Assembly (NCBI GenBank): GCA_964402565.1
Contig: CAYOCJ010000001.1
Location: forward strand, 568,823-632,822
Source of the DNA: an uncultured Gammaproteobacteria bacterium
GTDB taxonomy: Bacteria > Patescibacteriota > Patescibacteriia > UBA1558 > 2-01-FULL-52-15
DNA length: 64,000 nt
Direction: 5' to 3'
Positions 1-50,068 of this stretch are shown here, piece after piece (positions within the stretch are counted from its first letter, which is position 1; every line of letters begins with the position of its first letter). The translations under genes and the position numbers were made by a program. Under the pieces are notes generated by a model. That model saw only the letters and a list, made by a program, of their open reading frames with translations, had not been told where the DNA came from and ran no database searches.

Positions 1-538
1 CTTCGTCTTTTTGCATGCTTTCATTCAGCCACTGCCTGAAAAGGTCAGCCTTATCTTTCTTGATCTGCTTTGATTTCCAGATCAGATATCTATCCAGACG
101 GGGCGACAGACGCAATGTATATTTTATCGTGAACGACTCTTGACCGATATTTTCGTCGAGGTATTGCAAGAATGCCTTTACTTTTTTGGTCAGTGAATCT
201 GGCGAGTAAAAAACGATCTTAATGTACTTTTTTACGTCGGCATTATACGTCAACGCCTCTACAGACGCGTCGAGAATGCTGCCCTTCGCGAGCAGGTATA
301 GCACCTGCTTCTTATGTGCGAGTGCCAGTGCCAGCAAATAACCAGTGTCAGCTTCAAGCGCTGTGCCATCGATAACTAACGCATCAAGTTCATTAAAATG
401 CGTGCCGTCTAAATTACCTTTTTTAAGATCGATGTTCGTCCACACTGAAATACCGAGCCGCTTCAGTTCCTGCACGAGCTCCTGATGCAAGAGCAGCTCT
501 TTCGGTCCCGATATATTGAGAGAAATAAAAAGTTTCAT
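1..538 (-). CDS. Partial CDS (N-terminus in window, runs off the left edge). It is absent from the ORF track because no stop falls in the window. The N-terminal region looks Rossmann-like, faintly nucleoside 2-deoxyribosyltransferase-like; function unknown.
   Basis: Manual translation of the minus strand from ATG (revcomp of cat at 536-538) gives MKLFISLNISGPKELLLHQELVQELKRLGISVWTNIDLKKGNLDGTHFNELDALVIDGTALEADTGYLLALALAHKKQVLYLLAKGS... open to position 1. The ATG forms an ATGA overlap with the TGA stop of the upstream gene 535..1524. Confidence 0.35.
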   Translation of the reverse strand, partial: MKLFISLNISGPKELLLHQELVQELKRLGISVWTNIDLKKGNLDGTHFNELDALVIDGTALEADTGYLLALALAHKKQVLYLLAKGSILDASVEALTYNADVKKYIKIVFYSPDSLTKKVKAFLQYLDENIGQESFTIKYTLRLSPRLDRYLIWKSKQIKKDKADLFRQWLNESMQKDE

Positions 539-1524
539 ATGCCGTTGTTTGAGTGCTCATCTTGAATTAATGCACCGAATTCGGCGTCAGTTGCGGCCGC
601 AGCATCAGCCCACAACACTTTTGCAACTGCAGCTGCCCAGCTCATATGGACAACGCTATAGGTGTCATCATGCTGCAAAACATAATGCTGATTAAAAAGG
701 ACGATCCGTTTAAAATTTTTTCTTAAATTTTCAAGATCTTGCTGGGCAATTTTTTCGTTCGCCTGTATATGCAAAAGCAAGGTTGTATATTCCTTATTAT
801 TTTTATGTTGTAATGCACTATGCGTGATGCCAAGAGGACTCGGGCCAATGATACATACTTTTTCAGAAAGTCGTGGTGTGAACGTCGTTTCCTCTTCTGC
901 GTTTCCCACTTTGTTCAAGCTGATACCGAAATCAACCTTGCCTAAATATGTTTCATCAAAAGATCGAAACAGGTTCATTGATCTGAAATCAGATATAACT
1001 GCTTTTGCAGGGTCGATCAATTTATTGCCGAACATGATAGCAGCACTCTTGAAACTGGGATTGCTTGCAACTTGGATAGCGTTGATCAAATTTGAACGTA
1101 ATCCCAATCCGCCAGATTTGATAATTGATGAAAGATCCTGTTCAGCAAGTGCTTCAGGCGAATAACGCGAACCGGTGAATATTACAGGCTTATTGAATCC
1201 TTTCAGTGTGAATTTCGCCGCGGCTGCCGCGAGAACCATACTCTCAGCACGCACCAAAACAACGAAACCATCAAACTCCACTTTTTTGGCTGCAAGAATT
1301 CTAAGAATATTATTCAAACTTTGCAGAGAAAAAGCCTCCTTCTCTCCTTGAAGAAAAATAGGAGTAATGTCTGTCAAAAGGGCTACTTCAGGTAGCTCTG
1401 AGAACCATGTTGGAATATCAGACTCTTGATCAACGAAAAAAATGCTCTTGTTTGCTTTGATACTCACAAGAGAACCCGAAGAAAACAGCAATGCTATTTT
1501 ATATTTTTTATCAATTTTACTCAT
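535..1524 (-). CDS. L-asparaginase family protein (type I asparaginase / GatD-like amidohydrolase)
   Basis: 329 aa. Motif layout GFVVLVRAESMVLAAAAAKF...KPVIFTGSRYSP parallels the asparaginase GVVITHGTDT...PVVLTGAMRP pattern. Assignment by family-level motif recall only. Confidence 0.55.
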   Translation of the reverse strand: MSKIDKKYKIALLFSSGSLVSIKANKSIFFVDQESDIPTWFSELPEVALLTDITPIFLQGEKEAFSLQSLNNILRILAAKKVEFDGFVVLVRAESMVLAAAAAKFTLKGFNKPVIFTGSRYSPEALAEQDLSSIIKSGGLGLRSNLINAIQVASNPSFKSAAIMFGNKLIDPAKAVISDFRSMNLFRSFDETYLGKVDFGISLNKVGNAEEETTFTPRLSEKVCIIGPSPLGITHSALQHKNNKEYTTLLLHIQANEKIAQQDLENLRKNFKRIVLFNQHYVLQHDDTYSVVHMSWAAAVAKVLWADAAAATDAEFGALIQDEHSNNGI

Positions 1525-7423: not shown

Positions 7424-8266
7424 TTACATTTCAATAAAGTGAGTAACCTTCTGAAAAATCTTATTCTTATTCTCCGAGCGCAGCGGATTATGGTTCAATT
7501 CCTTTAAAATGAACATTTCCTTGTATACGCTGCCAACATTATCAAAAATATACTCCGCGCTCCTCGGATGAGATATCCGGTCATCGCGCGAGTGAATGAT
7601 AAGTATCGGAACAGTCACCTCGCGCAGGTGTTTTCTCGTGACCTGTTTGACTGAATCGCGGAAGTGCCCCAAACCATTCGTAGGAAACGAAGCATAATTG
7701 CCCGTTGATTCATATGCTTCGACGCGGTATTTCGATACATAAGGCTTCCGCACCTTTGAAATGCCGAAAAGCCTGAAGACATGGTATAGAATAAAATAGT
7801 AGGTCCGCCATTTCCAAAAAATCGACGGTCCGAGGCACACAATGCCTTTGAATCGATCCGGATACCGGCGTGCCAGATCAAGTGCTATATTTGCTCCGAA
7901 CGAGTAGCCGATCAAAACTATCCTCTTTCCGGAAGCTGCTGCCTCATTCGCTACAGCCTCGACGCTTTCCATCCAGTCCTGATAATTGCTTTGGATCAGG
8001 TCGTCAATATCAGTGCCATGTCCGGCAAGGCGGGCCACCATCACATCAATACCCTGTGAATACAAAAAATCGGCAAGCTCCTTCATATCATACGGGCTGC
8101 CGGTAAACCCATGGATCAAGATTGCTACCGTATCATTGTCGCGATGCAGGTAATTATACGGCTTGGCCTTGTCTTTGACGGGATGCGCATCAGCATTGCT
8201 TCGAGACCTGAGGTTAGCCTTTTTTTGACCAAATAGCATGGCTCTAGTATACCAAGATTCGCCCAA
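7424..8266 (-). CDS. Alpha/beta-fold hydrolase (carboxylesterase / lipase-like)
   Basis: 280 aa. ILIHGFTGSP oxyanion region, nucleophile elbow GYSFG (GXSXG), and a C-terminal His region IIHSRDDRISHP. Confidence 0.7.
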   Translation of the reverse strand: MGESWYTRAMLFGQKKANLRSRSNADAHPVKDKAKPYNYLHRDNDTVAILIHGFTGSPYDMKELADFLYSQGIDVMVARLAGHGTDIDDLIQSNYQDWMESVEAVANEAAASGKRIVLIGYSFGANIALDLARRYPDRFKGIVCLGPSIFWKWRTYYFILYHVFRLFGISKVRKPYVSKYRVEAYESTGNYASFPTNGLGHFRDSVKQVTRKHLREVTVPILIIHSRDDRISHPRSAEYIFDNVGSVYKEMFILKELNHNPLRSENKNKIFQKVTHFIEM

Positions 8267-28119: not shown

Positions 28120-28581
28120 TTACTTGATAACTTTATCAACGGTGACTTGTTGTCCGAAAAAAGTATCGCAAGCTCCGAGCATCACATGATCACCGCTTTG
28201 CTGGACATACATTCTTGATTCCGTCGTTGAGTTGCTGAGCGGATCGAGAAGCATTTCTTTCATATACCCAGGCACCAAGGTCTTTGCGAGATCGACGCAG
28301 GGAATATCCTTCGAAAGCGCAGGACAATAAGCTTTACACTCATTGGTATTAGCAATCATTGATGGTTGAGAGGGCAATGCGGGTAATGTTCCGCCATGGT
28401 CCGAAGCATAGTATTGCAATGCCTGCGCAATCACGTCCAAATACCGCTGTCGCTCGTGATTTACCTGTTCACGCCACTGCACCGGATAATTGCTTATGGA
28501 TAATAAAACCAGCACGACAATAATGGATGCGTATACTGCGGCTATGATCTTTAAACCGATCGATAGATGTTTTTTTGGCAT
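28120..28581 (-). CDS. Hypothetical N-terminally anchored secreted protein
   Basis: 153 aa. TM helix LKIIAAVYASIIVVLVLLSI; no recognisable domain. Confidence 0.35.
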   Translation of the reverse strand: MPKKHLSIGLKIIAAVYASIIVVLVLLSISNYPVQWREQVNHERQRYLDVIAQALQYYASDHGGTLPALPSQPSMIANTNECKAYCPALSKDIPCVDLAKTLVPGYMKEMLLDPLSNSTTESRMYVQQSGDHVMLGACDTFFGQQVTVDKVIK

Positions 28582-28584
28582 ACT

Positions 28585-29601
28585 CTAGTTTGACGTCGAG
28601 ATGATAGCCCTGGCTGCATCCCACATGGAGCTGTCGCCTTTTGTTTTAAGCAAATACCACCACTCCACTCCCCAAAAATAAGCCTGCTTGAAACCGGTCC
28701 TTCGTGCAAGCTCAGCATTTGTCTGCAGCTGCTGCACCGTGAATGATTTCGCAGCTTCCTCGGGACCTATATCCTGTACTTTCTTGAAATGTGCTGGCCA
28801 TGGTTCTGCCTGCAGCTCTGCAACGATAGCTGATTGAGGTGACTTGCCCGCAAATTTCGCTTTTACATCATACAGCCATGCGGGCCATGGCCAGCGGAAA
28901 TAGCCAAAATAATTATTCCACACAACTCGGTAAATGGTAATGCCAAGAATATCAGAAAAGTGGGCGGCCTTTCGCCATGTATTCAGCTCGCCAGAATCTG
29001 TCAAAATAAGCGGGCGCGGATCAGCGAGCCGCAAGTTGTTTATCTCAGTTTTGATCAAGTCTTCATCAGCTTTCGGGCATTCGCCAAACCATGAAAAGAA
29101 GTATTCATTTTCAAGCTGCCAGGCGCTGATCGATGATACGCTCTTGAAATGTTCAATTGCAGCCTTTGACATCGCCAGATGCGCCTGCTTCATATCAGCG
29201 TCTGAAAGCGAGTTTGACCACCCAGGCTGATGGCATTCGGGCCAGCGCGGCAAGCGGCGCCCGATATTCAAAATAAAATGTACATTGCGTTTCGTACCTT
29301 CTGCAAGCATCCAATCATAGTCGGAAAAATCGTAGGTTCCTTTCGTCCGCTCAATATCGTCCCAATACACGGGCAATCGCACCTGTTTGACCCCAAGGTC
29401 ATCAAGCATACTCGTATATGCAGCGCGCCAATCTAAGCCAAGCTCTTCTGCATATTTTTTTGAGAATGTCACTCCCCAGAAATGCTCCGGAACTTTTGAT
29501 TGCTGCAGCGTAAGGTGATGGCCCGCGAACTTGAAATACCAAAAACCCCAAACAATACAAAGAAACAAGATCAAAAATTTCTTAGAATGTCTGCGGCTCA
29601 T
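28585..29601 (-). CDS. Membrane-anchored glycoside hydrolase, clan GH-A TIM barrel (GH42/GH35-like beta-galactosidase/glycanase fold)
   Basis: 338 aa. VRLPVYWDDIERTKGTYDFSDYDWMLAEG resembles the GH-A N-terminal strand region. WQLENEYFF resembles the acid/base NEY(G) motif. N-terminal TM anchor. Confidence 0.45.
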   Translation of the reverse strand: MSRRHSKKFLILFLCIVWGFWYFKFAGHHLTLQQSKVPEHFWGVTFSKKYAEELGLDWRAAYTSMLDDLGVKQVRLPVYWDDIERTKGTYDFSDYDWMLAEGTKRNVHFILNIGRRLPRWPECHQPGWSNSLSDADMKQAHLAMSKAAIEHFKSVSSISAWQLENEYFFSWFGECPKADEDLIKTEINNLRLADPRPLILTDSGELNTWRKAAHFSDILGITIYRVVWNNYFGYFRWPWPAWLYDVKAKFAGKSPQSAIVAELQAEPWPAHFKKVQDIGPEEAAKSFTVQQLQTNAELARRTGFKQAYFWGVEWWYLLKTKGDSSMWDAARAIISTSN

Positions 29602-29604
29602 GCA

Positions 29605-30549
29605 TTAAATGGCTACGAAGTAGAGACCTATGCCGATGAAAATGAGTGCGGCAATTTTCTGCAGGATAACAGGAGCGCTAATATGTTCCTGCAATAATTT
29701 TGGCTTGAAAAATGTAATGAGCGCCGCAAACAAAAGAATGAATACATACTGGAAACTTTGCAGTGCTGATACGAGCGCAACGCTGACATGCGGGAACGAT
29801 ATGACATAACGCTGGCCGACAAATCCAATAGCTCCTAAACCCTGGCTTGCTAACCAAATCACTTTCATGCGGAATGAAAGCGGTTTCAGGCTGTTCGCGA
29901 TCGATGCACGAATGGATTTTGAAAAGGCTAAGAACACGAGCGCGACTGCAGTTCCAAGCTGTGGCCAGACCAGGCTATTCATGAAACCCTCTTCGCGGGA
30001 TAAGTATTGCGTCAGAACAAGAAAAAGAGAGAACGATAACGAGGCAGCAAGGGCATAGATGGTACCCCATCTCCTTGGCTGGCTTGTTTTTCCGCGAGGT
30101 GTAATGGAAATAATGATGGTTCCGATAACTAAAAATAAGAAAGCAAGGAACTTCGCTGTATCAAGCGGATCGTAGCTAAAGGTCATGAAAAAAGCCAAGA
30201 TCGGCATGCTGCCGCCTATGACAGGCAATACGCGCGATGCTTCTCCTTTTTGCAATGCCGTATACAGCAAGTAGATCGCCAGTGTAAAAATAATGCCGAC
30301 AAAAATTGCGACGAGCGTATGCCACAAAGTCATGAAGGTCAGAAGTCCGAATGGCATCGGCCGGCTGTCAATGAATTGGCTGACCATGACATCAATGACC
30401 AGCAAAGCCACAACGCCGACGCTCATCACCGAAACCCAGGTCGCATAGACGATACTTTCAGTGACAATGCTGGACAAAAAAATTTTATCAACCAGATTGC
30501 TGATGGATAAAATAAAGTATGAAATCAATATAATGTAGAGCCAATTCAT
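29605..30549 (-). CDS. Polytopic membrane protein (about 10 TM; DMT/EamA-like transporter fold guessed)
   Basis: 314 aa, highly hydrophobic throughout, two roughly repeated halves. Confidence 0.35.
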   Translation of the reverse strand: MNWLYIILISYFILSISNLVDKIFLSSIVTESIVYATWVSVMSVGVVALLVIDVMVSQFIDSRPMPFGLLTFMTLWHTLVAIFVGIIFTLAIYLLYTALQKGEASRVLPVIGGSMPILAFFMTFSYDPLDTAKFLAFLFLVIGTIIISITPRGKTSQPRRWGTIYALAASLSFSLFLVLTQYLSREEGFMNSLVWPQLGTAVALVFLAFSKSIRASIANSLKPLSFRMKVIWLASQGLGAIGFVGQRYVISFPHVSVALVSALQSFQYVFILLFAALITFFKPKLLQEHISAPVILQKIAALIFIGIGLYFVAI

Positions 30550-30604
30550 GCAATAGGGCCATTGATTGAATACCTAGTAGTATAGCATATAAAGCTGGGG
30601 TATA

Positions 30605-30640
30605 ACAAAAGACTTTATGCACGCATAAAGTCTTTTCGCA
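30605..30640 (-). terminator. Intrinsic terminator-like hairpin downstream of the Cys-rich small ORF
   Basis: Near-perfect 13-14 bp inverted repeat aaaagactttatgc/gcataaagtctttt (30607-30636), followed on the minus strand by a U-rich run (cttttguuaua). Confidence 0.4.
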
Positions 30641-30655
30641 AGGCCGGAAAAATGC

Positions 30656-30775
30656 CTATTTACCGCACGGACAAGCGTTTCCGCATGAGCACTCTGGCGC
30701 TCCCGCGGTGCCGCATGCGCAACCGCAATCGCACCCTTCAGCGCCGCAATTGCATGATTTTTTTTCTTCGTCCAT
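30656..30775 (-). CDS. Unannotated 39-aa cysteine-rich peptide, metallothionein-like (10 Cys arranged as CxC motifs)
   Basis: Manual translation of the minus strand: MDEEKKSCNCGAEGCDCGCACGTAGAPECSCGNACPCGK* (ATG = revcomp of cat 30773-30775; TAG = revcomp of cta 30656-30658). Below the 60-aa ORF-track threshold. The track ORF 30574..30786 is in another frame. Confidence 0.5.
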   Translation of the reverse strand: MDEEKKSCNCGAEGCDCGCACGTAGAPECSCGNACPCGK

Positions 30776-30798
30776 GGTGTTCTCAATTAATGATCTTC

Positions 30799-30827
30799 AG
30801 TATAGGATACCGCGGCGAAGCTGTGAA
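30799..30827 (-). promoter_or_regulatory. Sigma70-like promoter for the Cys-rich peptide gene (-35 TTCACA, 17 nt, -10 TATACT; ~23-nt leader)
   Basis: Minus-strand read ttcaca-gcttcgccgcggtatcc-tatact-gaagatcattaattgagaacacc-ATG. Confidence 0.4.
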
Positions 30828-30842
30828 CGCAAGCAATATTCA

Positions 30843-32183
30843 TTATAACTGCTCGATGACCGAGCGCAATTCTCGCATATGACTGCCTTCGTACTCTTCT
30901 CGTGTAATATGCGCAGCTGCATACAATGCATTCAGCGGCTTGCTGTCTTTCACCTGGTAATGACGAGGATAATGATATTCGATAGGTCCATTGTCGAGCA
31001 CGATAATGTGCTGCCGCTGGAGATAATCTCTTAGTGCCTGATCATTGCCATGGCTTCGGAATCCGCCTTGCACCGCAAGCGCCGCCAATGCGTCGTGATC
31101 AAGCATCACCGTATACGGAATATGAAAAATCTTCATCAGTTCAATATAGACATCGATATTGCTCTTACCATGGACATGTATCACCTTGATATCATCCGGC
31201 CCCTGATAAAACCGGTCAATCAAACCGCGCATCAAGATCCGGTCAGACACTCCCTCGACAAGCAGGACCTTATCGGCGAAGAACATTTCCAGATTATCAG
31301 CGTTCAGCTCCTGCACGAGTCGCTCCTGATCAAATTGACTCGGGTTTTGAGCGAGTGAATATACGTGACTACCGTCAGCATCTTTGAGCACACGATACAC
31401 TTGCCGCAATGTATACGCGGTCACAAATAAGGGTGAATGCGTCGTCATGATGATCTGGCAGGTTGCCCTGCTGCTCAGAATCTTGAGCAGCTTCTTGATC
31501 ATACCCGGATGTAAGTGGATTTCAGGCTCATCGATCATGACGATGGAGTATTCAGGATGCAGCGCATACAGCAAAATGACTAGCACACGCCGAAAGCCGC
31601 CGCCAAGCCGGTCGATCGTAATGCTTTTTGGCCCTACTGATACTGAACCAAATCCGGCAGATGAATCATCCACAATACTATTGATGCTTTCAACTTCCGG
31701 GAAATGGTCATGCAATAGATTTGTTAATACACCGAACTGCTGCGGGTATTTTTGAGCAAAAGAAGTATAATCTTTTTCTATCTGAAAAAAATCAGAAAAA
31801 TCCTCATACCTGAGCATTTTACACCTGCGGCTCAAGGTGGTCATTAACTCTGGTGAAAGTTTCCGCGAATGATCATCAGACGCATTGACTTCATAGTGCG
31901 TGCCTTTGAAGAAGACGCGCTGGCCGCCATGCAGCAGATCCTGGCCATGCGATCCTAACTCCAGCGTCATCATGATCTCAGAACGATAGTGGTGTAGCCG
32001 GGTAGGAGACAACTCTGGATGCAAAACAAAATCTATGGCGTCCAGAATATTGGTTTTGCCGCAATTATTCGGGCCAATAAATACATTAAAATTCGGCGAA
32101 AGCGGTATGCTGACGGGGTGAATAAAGCTCTTATAAGACCCTATCCAGAGATCCGAAATGACCATGCAACAAGTATAGCACAC
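30843..32183 (-). CDS. OLD-family (overcoming lysogenization defect) ABC-type ATPase with C-terminal TOPRIM nuclease domain; candidate anti-phage defence nuclease
   Basis: 446 aa. Walker A FIGPNNCGKTNILDAIDF, signature-like LGGGFRRVL, Walker B with the OLD/AAA_21 hallmark IVMIDEPEIHLHP, H-loop MTTHSP. TOPRIM-like VLLVEGVSDRIL and VMLDHDALAA (DxD). The likely true start is a few codons downstream (MVISDLW). Confidence 0.7.
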   Translation of the reverse strand: MCYTCCMVISDLWIGSYKSFIHPVSIPLSPNFNVFIGPNNCGKTNILDAIDFVLHPELSPTRLHHYRSEIMMTLELGSHGQDLLHGGQRVFFKGTHYEVNASDDHSRKLSPELMTTLSRRCKMLRYEDFSDFFQIEKDYTSFAQKYPQQFGVLTNLLHDHFPEVESINSIVDDSSAGFGSVSVGPKSITIDRLGGGFRRVLVILLYALHPEYSIVMIDEPEIHLHPGMIKKLLKILSSRATCQIIMTTHSPLFVTAYTLRQVYRVLKDADGSHVYSLAQNPSQFDQERLVQELNADNLEMFFADKVLLVEGVSDRILMRGLIDRFYQGPDDIKVIHVHGKSNIDVYIELMKIFHIPYTVMLDHDALAALAVQGGFRSHGNDQALRDYLQRQHIIVLDNGPIEYHYPRHYQVKDSKPLNALYAAAHITREEYEGSHMRELRSVIEQL

Positions 32184-32251: not shown

Positions 32252-33598
32252 TTACCTGATAAAAAACGAGCCCAAAATCCTAATATGTTCGCCTATGGCC
32301 TCAACCGCATGGATGTGAACATAGAATGCGCTCGCGACAACCAGGATAAGTGCCAGCGCATTCAGAATGATATGCGCATGCTGTACCTTGATCTTTACGA
32401 CGATATTGACCAGCAATAATCCAACCAAAGATAGTAAGAATACAAATAAGAAACGGTCAGCCCATGCAATAGCGTGCTGCAGCCACGTCCCTTTGCTCAG
32501 GACAACGCCGGTCTTGAACTGGTCAACGATCTGTCCCTGTTCATTGGTCACCGCTTCACCCAAGACTTCTATCTCAGGCTGCAATGCTGCAAGCGTAGCA
32601 GGATCCAATCGAGTCGGCTCTGCCGAAGGTTGTCCGGTAACGGTTGTTGGATTTGGCTGAACGACCGGCTGCGGTGCTGGCGCAGGTTGAGGCTGCGTTA
32701 CGATAGGCGTTGGAGCTGGTGCCGGTTTCGGAGCTGGCTGCGGAGTCGGTTTCGGCTTCACGACCGGCTGCGGTGCTGGCGCAGGGGTTGGCGTTGGCGC
32801 AGGCACAGGAGTCGGCGTTGGCTTTACTTCAGCCACTGGCGCGGGAGGCGTGTCAGCAGACACAACCTTGGTGACCGGTTGCTTCTGTGTGCCAAAAAAT
32901 ACAACCATCAGATTCGTCTGATGCCCGTCCAAATTACCGCTTAGTGTAGCAATACCGATCTCTTCATAGGCAGCATTCAGCAAATTTTTGTCATGCGTCG
33001 GGCTAGCCTGAAACGCTTTGAAAACTGAGTTTGCGGTAAGAAAATCCATGCCAAGGTTCTCACCCATTGCTTTAAAATCATAGCGAGCCGGATCCAGCCA
33101 CTGCCACGGTTTCTTGCCATCCGGGCCATAGTGGCTGAAATAATTCTCAGCGATCATGTCATTGCCTTTCGCCGTTGCTGCTTCTTCAAGATATGAGTTC
33201 ACGGCGAGTTCATGCCCTCCCCGCTCGACCCGGTATTGATTGATGAGCGTATACATCTGTGAGCGAATATCCTGCTCCAGTCGTCCGAGATTCGGATAGA
33301 GCACGAATAAAGTCGAGATCAAAGCGACTTTAATAAAGACGACCAACAGCATGATGTGCTTTACTGAACGAGCCTGAAAGACTTTTGGCTGATAGCCATT
33401 ACGCTCATGCGGTATGACAAAATCAACCAGCGCTCGCGATGCCGTATGCAGGCGCAGTGAAAAGATCTCACTTAGTTTGTCGCGTTCTTCTTGAGGCATA
33501 TGACGATACATAATCCAACTCACCAAAGCTGCACCGCTGAACAATAACTTGATCAATGGGTGATGCTTATGCGGTTTATTATCTTCAGTATTGCCCAT
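32252..33598 (-). CDS. Membrane protein with extracellular CAP/SCP/PR-1-like domain and a proline-rich (PAPxP) linker
   Basis: 448 aa. CAP-like region GHELAVNSYLEEAATAKGNDMIAENYFSHYGPDGKKPWQW...ENLGMDF...AYEEIGIA. ~70-aa low-complexity linker PTPTPVPAPTPTPAPAPQPVVKPKPTPQPAPKPAPAPTP. TM helices at both ends. Confidence 0.6.
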   Translation of the reverse strand: MGNTEDNKPHKHHPLIKLLFSGAALVSWIMYRHMPQEERDKLSEIFSLRLHTASRALVDFVIPHERNGYQPKVFQARSVKHIMLLVVFIKVALISTLFVLYPNLGRLEQDIRSQMYTLINQYRVERGGHELAVNSYLEEAATAKGNDMIAENYFSHYGPDGKKPWQWLDPARYDFKAMGENLGMDFLTANSVFKAFQASPTHDKNLLNAAYEEIGIATLSGNLDGHQTNLMVVFFGTQKQPVTKVVSADTPPAPVAEVKPTPTPVPAPTPTPAPAPQPVVKPKPTPQPAPKPAPAPTPIVTQPQPAPAPQPVVQPNPTTVTGQPSAEPTRLDPATLAALQPEIEVLGEAVTNEQGQIVDQFKTGVVLSKGTWLQHAIAWADRFLFVFLLSLVGLLLVNIVVKIKVQHAHIILNALALILVVASAFYVHIHAVEAIGEHIRILGSFFIR

Positions 33599-39882: not shown

Positions 39883-40344
39883 CTATGCATACCGGTCGAC
39901 GCGGAAGCAGAAAAATAACAAAATGCTGATCAAAAGGAAAGCAACGAATGACATCAGCGGTATCGTAATGAAGCCCAAGAAGCTGATGTCGATGGTCGAG
40001 CATGCTATGCTGCCTTTCGTGCAGTTAATGAAGGAGTTCTCTGCTGCCGGTTTATACATCTGTATGAGATAGTGATATCCGGCGATAATCGCTCCTATGC
40101 AGCTCATCGGTAAAATATATTTCGGAAAATTCGCATCACGCAACCGAAGCGCAACGACAGACAGCAGGACGATCGGGTACATCAGGATGCGTTGATACCA
40201 GCAGAGCTCGCAAGGCGTGAGTCCAACGATCTCGCTGAAATACAGACTGCCAAGCATTGCAGTCGCAGAAATGAGAAGAACGCACAAATATAAATTTCGT
40301 TTCGACAATACTCTCATACGTGTTTCAAGTATAGCATAGAACAT
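39883..40344 (-). CDS. Disulfide bond formation protein B family (DsbB/BdbC-like thiol-disulfide oxidoreductase)
   Basis: 153 aa, 4 TM. Signature GLTPCELCWYQRILMYP (cf. BdbC PCVLCWYQRICMYP) and a second Cys pair NCTKGSIACS. Confidence 0.75.
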   Translation of the reverse strand: MFYAILETRMRVLSKRNLYLCVLLISATAMLGSLYFSEIVGLTPCELCWYQRILMYPIVLLSVVALRLRDANFPKYILPMSCIGAIIAGYHYLIQMYKPAAENSFINCTKGSIACSTIDISFLGFITIPLMSFVAFLLISILLFFCFRVDRYA

Positions 40345-47536: not shown

Positions 47537-50068
47537 TTATCGGGTTTCTTTTTCAGCAAAACGATAATATAAATTCTTTGCGGTTTCGGTAACGATAAAA
47601 TAGCTGCCAACGACGATGAAGAGTTCAATCAAGTGCTCAGGCTTGGGACTGATGAATTTAAATATGGTATGCCCCACCGACGTGAATGGAATAATAATGG
47701 TGGCAATGAATGCAGTTCCTGACAGCCAATATAAAATAGGTGACGCCTGTTTTGCTTTCCAAATAGGCAGCCTCGTGCGGATCGAAAACAAGAATACCAG
47801 CTCAGTCAAGATGCTTCCGATGAACCAGTTCGTTTGCAGAACCTCCGGAGAAATGCGGAAGAAAAGGCCGAACATGATGAAATCAAAAACGGTGCTTACG
47901 ACGCCAAGCAAAGTCGCGATGAGCACAATCTCTTTCACATCATAGCTTTTTGGTTTTTTGAGCTCCATGGTATCAGTGGTATCGGTAGCTATCGCGATCA
48001 TGGGAAAATCCGACAGCAAATTCACCAACAGGATCTGCAAGGCAAGCATCGGAAGAAAATCTACGATCAGCGACGCGACAGCGACGGCATAAAAATTTCC
48101 GAAATTTGAAGCAAGAGTTGCTTTGATGTACTTCACGGTATTCACGAAAACCGACCGGCCTTCTTGAATGCCGTCAACGATGACCTGCAGGCTTTTTTTC
48201 AACAGAATAATATCAGCAGTTTCCTGCGCAATATCTGAAGCGCCCTGTACAGCGAGACCGACATTTGCAATTTTCAACGCCGGCGCGTCATTGATCCCTT
48301 CTCCCAAGAAACCGACCTCGTGTTTCTCCTGCAATATTTGAATGATTTTGAACTTTTGCTGCGGCGATACGCGCGCGAATACATTAAATGAATGAGCGGC
48401 AGCAACCTGCTTTTCATGCGACAATTCCTGGAATGCAGCGCCGGTGATAACGTCAGTGAACTTTTCAACCAGGCCTATCTGCTGGGCCACGGAGCCGGCA
48501 ACTTCAGGACTATCCCCGGTCAATATCTTCACCGCAACGCCGAGCGATTTTGCTTTCCGGAGCGATTCTTTCGTCGTTTTCTTCAGTGGGTCCACGAATG
48601 AAATAATACCGACGAATTGCAAATCTTTTTCTTCGTGCTCAATCGCATGCCCATGATCGCCATGCAGATCTTTCTGAGCTACAGCGATAACGCGGTAGCC
48701 CTGCTTGCCGGCATCGACAAGCCATTTCGAGATCACCTCATGAACGCCTGCCGGGATCTTGGAGCATAATGGCAGTATGTCCTCGGGCGCTCCCCGTACG
48801 ATCAATTGACTGGCCTGCGCCTTCTCTACGATCACGGTATTTCTTCTGCGGGCAGGGTCAAAAGGTATTTCATCAACGCGTTTAAATCCATGCAGGTCTT
48901 TGCGCTCATGCGCCGAGAGTTTATTCCATAGCGCCAGATCAAATGCGTTATTCGGTTCTTTTTCTTTTTCAGTCAGAAAAGGCGCGGCAATGCTTGCAAT
49001 GAACACAACATTTGCATTGCTGGGTGCGAAAACCTGCGCGACGCTCAATACATTCTCAGTGAGCGTACCGGTCTTATCGGTACACAATACATCAATGCTG
49101 CCCAGATCTTCGATGGAAGATAAACGCTTCACGACGACATGGTGCTTGGCAAGATGCAAACCGCCCCTCGACAATGAAAATGTGGTGACCACGGGCAATG
49201 CTTCAGGTATGACGCTCACTGCCAGGGCGATGGCAAAAATGAAAAGCTCAGGGATATCGATGGACGGCCCTTTGATCAAAATATTCGCCACGACAATGAA
49301 AGCCAATGTAATGAGGACCAGGCGCAAGATAAAAGAGCTGAAACGCGCAATGCCCTTGGCGAAGGTGCTGACACGGACAGTCTCTGTCGCAAGTTTACTG
49401 ATATCTCCCATGACGGTCCGGACACCGGTCGCACAGACGATCCCTAAGCCTTTACCGCTAACCACAGCAGTACCAGAAAAACCCATGTTCGCAGCTTTAA
49501 ATATCTCGGCAGTCGGCTGGGATAATGCTTCTGATTGCTTCCGAATAGGCACCGACTCTCCGGTAAGAATCGACTCATCCACCATGAAGTTCGTTGCCCG
49601 AAGTAAGCGGATATCCGCAGAGATGATGTCGCCCGGTTCAAGTACCACAATATCGCCGACGATCAATTCTCTGCTGGGTATCATCTGCTCTGCTCCGTCA
49701 CGTATGACACGCGACCGGCGGACAACATACTGTTTCAATAGCTGCAAGGTCTGCTCTGATCGATATTCCTGATAAAAACCGATCCCCGCATTGATGATCA
49801 CGAATAGGACGATCATCGAACCATCGATATACTCCTTGAGTATAATAGCAACGATCGCAGCGCTGATCAGAAGATAAATGAATGGCGAAGTGAACTGCCG
49901 CTTCAGCAGGTCAAACCACGTAGTCGGCTTGGTCCTGATCTCGTTGAAACCTTGTGAACCTAAAAGTTTGCGGGCCTCAGCCTGAGCGATGCCGTGCTCG
50001 ATCGACGAATGATAGCGTGCGGTCAATTCATTCTCCGAAATGACCGTTAATTGGGAAAAATCTGCCAT
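47537..50068 (-). CDS. P-type cation-transporting ATPase (type II, Ca2+/Mg2+-like)
   Basis: 843 aa. Phosphorylation site CTDKTGTLTEN, TM4 IPEALPVV (cf. SERCA PEGLPAV), hinge GEGINDAPALKIANVGLAV, TGDSPEVA; 8-10 TM. Confidence 0.85.
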   Translation of the reverse strand: MADFSQLTVISENELTARYHSSIEHGIAQAEARKLLGSQGFNEIRTKPTTWFDLLKRQFTSPFIYLLISAAIVAIILKEYIDGSMIVLFVIINAGIGFYQEYRSEQTLQLLKQYVVRRSRVIRDGAEQMIPSRELIVGDIVVLEPGDIISADIRLLRATNFMVDESILTGESVPIRKQSEALSQPTAEIFKAANMGFSGTAVVSGKGLGIVCATGVRTVMGDISKLATETVRVSTFAKGIARFSSFILRLVLITLAFIVVANILIKGPSIDIPELFIFAIALAVSVIPEALPVVTTFSLSRGGLHLAKHHVVVKRLSSIEDLGSIDVLCTDKTGTLTENVLSVAQVFAPSNANVVFIASIAAPFLTEKEKEPNNAFDLALWNKLSAHERKDLHGFKRVDEIPFDPARRRNTVIVEKAQASQLIVRGAPEDILPLCSKIPAGVHEVISKWLVDAGKQGYRVIAVAQKDLHGDHGHAIEHEEKDLQFVGIISFVDPLKKTTKESLRKAKSLGVAVKILTGDSPEVAGSVAQQIGLVEKFTDVITGAAFQELSHEKQVAAAHSFNVFARVSPQQKFKIIQILQEKHEVGFLGEGINDAPALKIANVGLAVQGASDIAQETADIILLKKSLQVIVDGIQEGRSVFVNTVKYIKATLASNFGNFYAVAVASLIVDFLPMLALQILLVNLLSDFPMIAIATDTTDTMELKKPKSYDVKEIVLIATLLGVVSTVFDFIMFGLFFRISPEVLQTNWFIGSILTELVFLFSIRTRLPIWKAKQASPILYWLSGTAFIATIIIPFTSVGHTIFKFISPKPEHLIELFIVVGSYFIVTETAKNLYYRFAEKETR

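Follow-up and report, generated by a model that had tools for sequence, protein, structure and literature searches.

A conserved Cys-rich small gene of Candidatus Komeilibacteria encoding a putative metallothionein-like peptide

A small Cys-rich ORF between two minus-strand genes

The window that we have analyzed (the whole stretch of DNA, 64,000 nucleotides long) carries genes for a type IV pilus, chemotaxis, a sortase and large surface proteins. Near its middle, a gap of 294 nt between two minus-strand genes holds a small Cys-rich ORF, and the features of this locus are the following, in the direction of transcription (loci of relatives are designated by L and a number).

30843..32183, minus strand: upstream neighbor, OLD-family nuclease (AAA_15/AAA_21 ATPase plus OLD-like TOPRIM), syntenic in L002-L008, L010-L012 and L134
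30799..30827, minus strand: promoter-like site TTCACA-17-TATACT (-35 TTCACA at 30827..30822, -10 TATACT at 30804..30799)
30656..30775, minus strand: small CDS of 39 aa plus stop, Cys-rich metallothionein-like peptide MDEEKKSCNCGAEGCDCGCACGTAGAPECSCGNACPCGK, based on the ORF list, eight syntenic homologues and the coding substitution pattern
30607..30636, minus strand: hairpin with a 13-bp perfect stem and a 4-nt loop (CGUG), 19 nt past the stop codon
30579..30608, minus strand: second promoter-like site, TTGTTA-18-(TG)TATACT, between the hairpin and the membrane-protein gene
29605..30549, minus strand: downstream neighbor, 314-aa polytopic membrane protein, DMT/EamA-like by its homologues' annotations, conserved at all loci

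The initial annotation had described here a 39-aa ORF with ten Cys, different in frame from the ORF-track entry at the same place, and the ORF list agrees on both counts: the sequence is exactly as claimed, begins with ATG and has 10 Cys among its 39 aa, while the 70-aa ORF at 30574..30786 (minus strand) is read in another frame. When all six-frame stop-to-stop segments of the window were scanned, the highest Cys density per 32 residues was that of this ORF (10 Cys), and the next most Cys-dense stretches were off-frame readings within real, large genes. The Cys/Gly codon pattern of the ORF had an expectation of 0.00 in shuffles of the window. The same ORF, without any difference, was found in L001, a separate assembly of this organism (Logan SRR12313479).

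Conservation among relatives

For the downstream membrane protein, the homologues have "Candidatus Komeilibacteria bacterium" as source name and are annotated as "DMT-like permease" or "EamA family transporter". The window is therefore assigned to a CPR/Patescibacteria genome, and its pilus, chemotaxis, sortase and surface-protein genes agree with this. Relatives were sampled as the contigs encoding nine of these homologues, 48–61% identical to the protein of the window. The gene order across them was CAP-domain protein, OLD nuclease, gap and membrane protein, and in the gap we found seven further Cys-rich ORFs on the same strand. Together with the window this makes eight distinct versions of 35–45 aa, all at the same syntenic position in contigs of the Komeilibacteria lineage. 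The peptides of the relatives are:

L002: MQIAHLAAAEPKCNCDRCDCGCSCATDGSEECACGYACSCGH (same sequence in L003, L004, L005 and L008)
L006: MLYAAEGSCDCGMTECDCGCSCGRETIECPCGAKCSCGH
L007: METKSDCGTTGCDCGCSCDQESKECPCGEKCPCGH
L011: MANRLSNTPDGGCNCGADGCGCGCKCGMPENDGGCSCGTCSCGKG
L133: MDNDSMNCTGKCGTTGCDCGCTCGNETHKGACECGPGGCSCNCDK
L134: MAQQLNHGPEGCNCGTEGCECGCKCGLPDHTGGCSCGEQCSCGK
L135: MSDETCNCGAKGCECGCSCGLPENDGQCECGGNCSCGCSQ

All eight ORFs start with ATG and end in a stop codon, and in all eight the membrane-protein gene follows directly on the 3' side, on the same strand. The relatives' peptides are 44–53% identical to that of the window. Nine Cys and two Gly do not change anywhere in the alignment, giving the family motif C-x-C-G-x3-C-x-C-G-C-x-C-x(6-8)-C-x-C-G-x(1-3)-C-x-C. 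Most members have a tenth Cys, and three a His at the C-terminus.

The pattern of substitutions is that of a coding sequence. At the invariant Cys positions TGC and TGT alternate, and at the invariant Gly positions GGA, GGC and GGT. In the codon alignment of the eight versions, which was made in the Cys frame so that the figures that follow are somewhat biased, pS was between 0.58 and 0.93 (synonymous sites essentially saturated) versus a pN between 0.20 and 0.46, the mean pairwise difference at codon positions 1, 2 and 3 was 0.37, 0.33 and 0.63, and in the columns with the same amino acid these values became 0.025, 0.017 and 0.50. The conservation of start, stop, length and flanking signals is independent of the choice of alignment frame. 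Conservation and codon pattern taken together therefore indicate that the ORF is almost certainly a real protein-coding gene under purifying selection. The initial annotation had named loss of the frame or a non-coding pattern of substitutions in relatives as grounds for giving up the ORF, and had asked for a check of the Cys positions in related genomes; the frame is kept in the eight versions, the pattern is coding, and nine Cys are invariant across the eight syntenic ORFs.

The same data bear on the reading of the ORF as a chance product of a GC-rich intergenic stretch, or as a by-product of a non-coding RNA or an antisense gene. One antisense frame is likewise free of stops over the span of the ORF in the eight sequences, a 76-aa ORF on the plus strand (30652..30882) overlaps it, and the ORF has never been picked by gene callers. 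However, the openness of the antisense frame is due to the sense composition, rich in TGY and GGN codons, and this frame has no conserved boundaries and would cross the promoter into the 3' end of the OLD gene. The start, the stop, the length and the nine Cys have been kept at about 50% amino-acid identity with synonymous sites saturated, the triplet periodicity fits the Cys frame, promoter and terminator are oriented for it, and the Rfam search gave no match in the window. A chance ORF is thus largely refuted already, and we regard it as extremely improbable.

Expression signals

The initial annotation had assigned to the ORF a promoter of its own. In a scan of the 1.5 kb at 30000..31500, the site TTCACA-17-TATACT was the best sigma-70-like match of the region (10/12), with its -10 hexamer ending 23 nt before the ATG, and promoter-like sites recur in the relatives, where inspection by eye gave TATACT-like -10 boxes, often TG-extended, roughly 23–50 nt 5' of the ATG. 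The formal promoter scan flagged sites in the window, L134 and L135. When the eight upstream sequences were compared by eye, nothing convincing as a conserved operator or palindrome was found besides the -10 box. Shine-Dalgarno complementarity was weak or absent.

The hairpin at 30607..30636, claimed before as a terminator, does have the 13-bp perfect stem, and is probably an intrinsic terminator of a non-canonical, AU-rich type. The 60-nt segment that contains it has a folding energy of -16.1 kcal/mol (z = -3.5), which no shuffle out of 200 equaled. A simple terminator scan did not flag it, because the stem is AU-rich and the U-run lies inside the 3' arm. A stem-loop is found 3' of the stop codon in six of the eight loci, with the canonical form followed by a T-run in L011 and L134. 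The hairpin is missing from the two others (L006 and L007), where 16–17 nt separate the end of the ORF from the ATG of the membrane-protein gene, so that both genes are presumably co-transcribed. In the window, the second promoter-like site lies between the hairpin and the membrane-protein gene, and similar TATACT/TATAAT boxes are found in the same gap of L011, L133 and L134.

Promoter, short ORF, hairpin and a same-strand gene, found in this order in six of the eight loci, are also the layout that a leader ORF acting in cis would have: a shortage of Cys-tRNA would stall ribosomes at the ten Cys codons, and the stalling would set the read-through of the terminator into the DMT/EamA-like gene. 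By its homologues' annotations the downstream gene belongs to the DMT/EamA superfamily, which includes the Escherichia coli cysteine/O-acetylserine exporter EamA. However, selection goes beyond the Cys codons, since two Gly and the precise spacing never vary and pN is much lower than pS. L006 and L007 lack the terminator, with the ORF only 16–17 nt from the transporter ATG; in three relatives (L009, L010 and L012) the transporter gene occurs without the ORF; and the second promoter-like site is located 3' of the hairpin. Moreover, the minimum free energy folds of the ORF plus gap of six loci gave the hairpin alone and no evident antiterminator in this small set of sequences. A Cys-codon leader is therefore quite improbable in our view.

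Neighboring genes

The membrane-protein gene and the two genes that follow it, at 28585..29601 (338 aa) and 28120..28581 (153 aa), all on the minus strand, form a tightly packed block in all the relatives, located upstream of an MCP-domain gene. None of the three had a Pfam match at E <= 0.001. On the other side, the OLD-family nuclease gene is context only and stands outside the system. Its synteny 5' of the small ORF is kept across Komeilibacteria, an unusual stability for a defense-type gene, and in L006 a gene with an AbiEii domain (255..863) is also found near the OLD nuclease locus. Further upstream, the CAP-domain (PF00188) protein at 32252..33598 (minus strand) has a long linker rich in Pro, Thr, Ala and Val (PAPVAEVKPTPTPVPAPTPTPAPAPQP...), which accounts for the local GC maximum of 0.68 at about 32620..32860.

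As a partner for metal buffering, the initial annotation had pointed to a P-type ATPase elsewhere in the window. This link is rejected: the gene, at 47537..50068 (minus strand), has the domains Cation_ATPase_N, E1-E2_ATPase and Cation_ATPase_C, i.e., it codes for a P2-type cation pump and not a heavy-metal P1B pump, and it is 17 kb away. Within the window, neither a metal-sensing regulator nor a recognizable operator or metal-transport gene was found adjacent to the ORF. The slot itself gives a weak hint that it carries metal-homeostasis cargo. In two of the three relatives that have the DMT-like gene and no Cys-rich ORF, the same place between the OLD and DMT-like genes is occupied by a gene for a VIT1-family (PF01988) metal transporter (L010 2118..2855 and L012 2256..2999), and in both its start and the stop codon of the OLD gene share 4 nt.

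The alternative that the initial annotation had offered, a precursor of a Cys-rich secreted or modified peptide, remains unsupported. If it were a RiPP such as a SCIFF/ranthipeptide or a lanthipeptide, or else a bacteriocin or disulfide-rich signal, the product would be a short Cys-rich peptide transcribed on its own beside a transporter-like membrane-protein gene, as is the case here, and a DsbB gene is present within the window (39883..40344). However, the N-terminus before the first Cys has only 3–13 residues and is variable and hydrophilic, with no signal peptide, conserved leader or cleavage motif, the conserved neighborhood contains no radical-SAM, lanthipeptide (LanM), YcaO or peptidase gene that could act in maturation, and the DMT-like neighbor is also found without the ORF. 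We consider such a precursor highly improbable.

A broader possibility, which we view as rather improbable, joins the ORF and the DMT/EamA-like permease in a two-gene thiol/metal module. The product would sequester metal, while the translation of its ten Cys codons, together with the hairpin, would also sense the cysteine or metal status and tune read-through into the transporter gene; the locus would be a swappable slot for metal homeostasis, taken by a VIT1 transporter gene in other Komeilibacteria.

Database searches and misannotation

The initial annotation had called the ORF unannotated, and exact look-ups bear this out: the product and all eight family members are missing from the gene and protein collections, with none of the eight peptides in a collection of 15 billion proteins and no gene on record with the product of the window. 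The absence of a conserved gene from 15 billion sequences is explained by its being too short and too compositionally biased. A word-indexed search of 5.8 billion protein clusters with the single peptide gave no candidate. With the eight-member profile, the sole match in these clusters was P0026, at E = 9.4. This 63-aa protein (MCQPKTHPKAMGIEGCDCGCSCGPTFRHF...) has the nonapeptide GCDCGCSCG in common with the family, followed by a charged helical tail, and is probably an unrelated small metal-binding protein. A phmmer search of 1.84 billion representatives gave no match at E <= 0.001, with the limited sensitivity of a compositionally biased query of 39 aa.

Nucleotide collections gave a similar picture. 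Among genome contigs, a scan with exact motif patterns of the peptide alone gave nothing, and the four-member profile, in a scan limited to exact motifs, recovered only a Komeilibacteria genome already sampled (L008). For metagenome contigs, no relatives were confirmed by the profile scan limited to exact motif patterns, and with a degenerate DNA pattern there were no family members among the matches listed, mainly GC/TG microsatellites. Viral contigs and a plasmid tblastn gave nothing, the viral and plasmid scans being partly limited to exact motif patterns. Among the collections scanned, the family has so far been seen only in contigs of the Komeilibacteria lineage (groundwater, uncultured).

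Two other Cys-rich ORFs came out of the pattern scan of metagenome contigs. The contig L082 (Ga0308178_1021170, 67% GC) has at its end, on the minus strand, a partial ORF ...GCPCGCSCSCGTDCPCGADGCGCGCGCE* that may be another metallothionein-like gene, outside the family. In L075 (JAEEGL011817390.1) 7605..8118, a Cys/His-rich ORF has (CGCGEGH)n repeats and then a hydrophobic anchor, and is not a family member.

In two of the relatives the small gene has been hidden by the misannotation of its neighbor's start. The annotated DMT-like genes of L006 (3001..4029; P0003, GCA_016204595.1) and L135 (232..1320; P0011, GCA_017973895.1) code for 342 and 362 aa, respectively, versus 314 aa elsewhere. These over-extended starts cross the small ORF in another frame, and the conserved N-terminus (M-x-WLYIIL...) is found about 28–48 codons later.

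Resemblance to metallothioneins

Among the operational criteria for metallothioneins are a low mass (well below 10 kDa), a Cys content of roughly 15–30% in CxC, CC or CxxC motifs, and scarce aromatic residues, next to a high content of metal held in thiolate clusters. All eight peptides have 35–45 residues, with 22.2–27.5% Cys and 5–7 CxC motifs each (never CC), no aromatic residue in six members and a single Tyr in two, 0–2 His, and an acidic net charge of -1 to -5. The family has therefore the size, the Cys content and the scarcity of aromatics of a metallothionein.

The search of the peptide against known metallothionein families, the other side of the comparison, came out negative. The window peptide had no match at E <= 10 in Pfam and NCBIfam. 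The Pfam scan of the eight members gave a lone contact with Metallothio_5 (PF02067) in one of them, at a non-significant E = 1.7, and none reached the gathering score of the Pfam metallothionein families (PF00131, PF01439, PF02066-PF02069, PF11403 and others). The family profile found none of the PDB sequences at E <= 10. On the other hand, in hhalign the family profile scored 30.5 against Drosophila MtnA and 27.7 against the Neurospora Cu-metallothionein, by one-against-one statistics and with reference sequences that we take to be those of these two proteins. The part aligned was the C-x-C-G-x-x-C-x-C-G block that they share with the family. Over 100 composition-preserving shuffles for each, the mean was about 13 (sd 3.6) and the maxima 22.1 (MtnA) and 24.2 (Cu-MT), all below the real scores, indicating that the order of the residues, beyond their composition, resembles known Cu-thioneins. 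The metallothionein-like CxC composition put forward in the initial annotation is thus supported by Cys content, motifs and the comparison of hhalign scores with shuffles, and the peptide may bind metal.

Among the closest known proteins are the fungal and insect Cu-metallothioneins, i.e., the Cu-MT of Neurospora crassa (MT family 8) and Drosophila MtnA (PF02067). These have 26–40 aa (35–45 aa here), with Cys at about 25%, CxC dominant, few or no aromatics and a C-x-C-G-x-x-C-x-C-G stretch common to both. However, no HMM match was significant (the E = 1.7 contact of one of the eight members being the best), they have no counterpart of the N-terminal C-x-C-G-x3-C-x-C-G-C-x-C block of the present family, and they are eukaryotic while its host is bacterial (CPR). 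The simplest explanation of the likeness would be convergence.

Among bacterial metallothioneins, the BmtA/SmtA type (PF02069, Metallothio_Pro; Synechococcus SmtA and Pseudomonas MTs) also consists of small, Cys-rich, cytosolic proteins. SmtA-type proteins have about 55 aa, a zinc-finger-like fold, conserved aromatics and His ligands, and a Zn4Cys9His2 cluster, whereas the alignment of the present family shows no conserved His or aromatic and there was no match to PF02069. MymT, the copper metallothionein of Mycobacterium tuberculosis, was likewise a small bacterial Cys-rich peptide overlooked by genome annotation. It has 53 aa, and its Cys motifs and length differ from those of the present family; protein searches found no sequence similarity and no copper-responsive regulator was identified in the window. 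The beta-domain of vertebrate metallothioneins (PF00131) is similar in having about 30 residues with nine Cys, suiting M(II)3Cys9, and CxC pairs, but there is no Pfam or PDB sequence match, and the present protein is a single domain with another Cys register. From its sequence, the family is most likely metallothionein-like by operational criteria, yet a sequence family of its own with no record in the databases searched.

Proposed function

Our best reading, which we hold to be probable on balance, is that of a new, lineage-restricted bacterial family of metallothionein-like peptides that would buffer or detoxify metal. The small gene would be transcribed on its own in the genome of a Candidatus Komeilibacteria (CPR/Patescibacteria), and its acidic product has 35–45 residues, nearly all of them Cys, Gly and other small or polar amino acids. 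In a metal-thiolate cluster, the nine invariant thiolates would wrap thiophilic ions, either Zn(II)/Cd(II) or Cu(I), with the tenth Cys of most members and the C-terminal His of three as possible extra ligands. With nine Cys, the cluster could be of the M(II)3Cys9 type or hold about six Cu(I) ions, and in this way the peptide would buffer or detoxify cytosolic metal. That it acts as a single-domain thiolate-cluster protein seems to us somewhat likelier than the contrary. Metal binding, the identity of the metal, the stoichiometry and the physiological role are inferred.

AlphaFold2, run on the single sequence without metal, gave a beta-hairpin-like model with two short strands and moderate confidence (pLDDT 72.8), for which Foldseek found no fold match in the PDB. 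This model, a prediction for the metal-free chain, speaks neither for nor against a cluster protein. A compact beta-hairpin-like model (pLDDT 73) could also be read as a metal-bound or redox-active mini-protein instead of a metal buffer, for instance a double zinc-knuckle module binding a partner protein or nucleic acid, a small peptide with an Fe-S or redox function, or a reservoir of thiols. Two isolated Cys4 sites could be made from nine or ten Cys, and the strict adjacency to one membrane-protein gene, in 8/8 loci, could reflect a protein partnership. However, no CxxC or CPxC knuckle is conserved, and the Cys come in CxC pairs, never as CC. Such pairs characterize clusters with bridging thiolates rather than isolated Zn or Fe-S sites. 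In addition, neither a zinc-ribbon or ferredoxin family match nor a fold match was obtained. We consider a mini-protein of this kind unlikely.

Significance

As of 2020 only two bacterial metallothioneins had been functionally investigated, SmtA, with a role in zinc detoxification, and MymT, crucial in copper detoxification (PMC7387436). The present family would be a further bacterial metallothionein-like family, unrelated to them in sequence, and the first noted in CPR/Patescibacteria; among the open-access papers searched, none had both "metallothionein" and "candidate phyla radiation". The CPR/Patescibacteria are uncultured bacteria of extremely small size whose genomes are reduced. The finding is moderately surprising in bacterial metallobiology and in small-protein annotation, without amounting to a system of a new kind. 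Should the peptide prove to bind metal, it would tell us how streamlined symbionts deal with thiophilic metals, and there would be a case for systematic six-frame searches for Cys-rich micro-ORFs.
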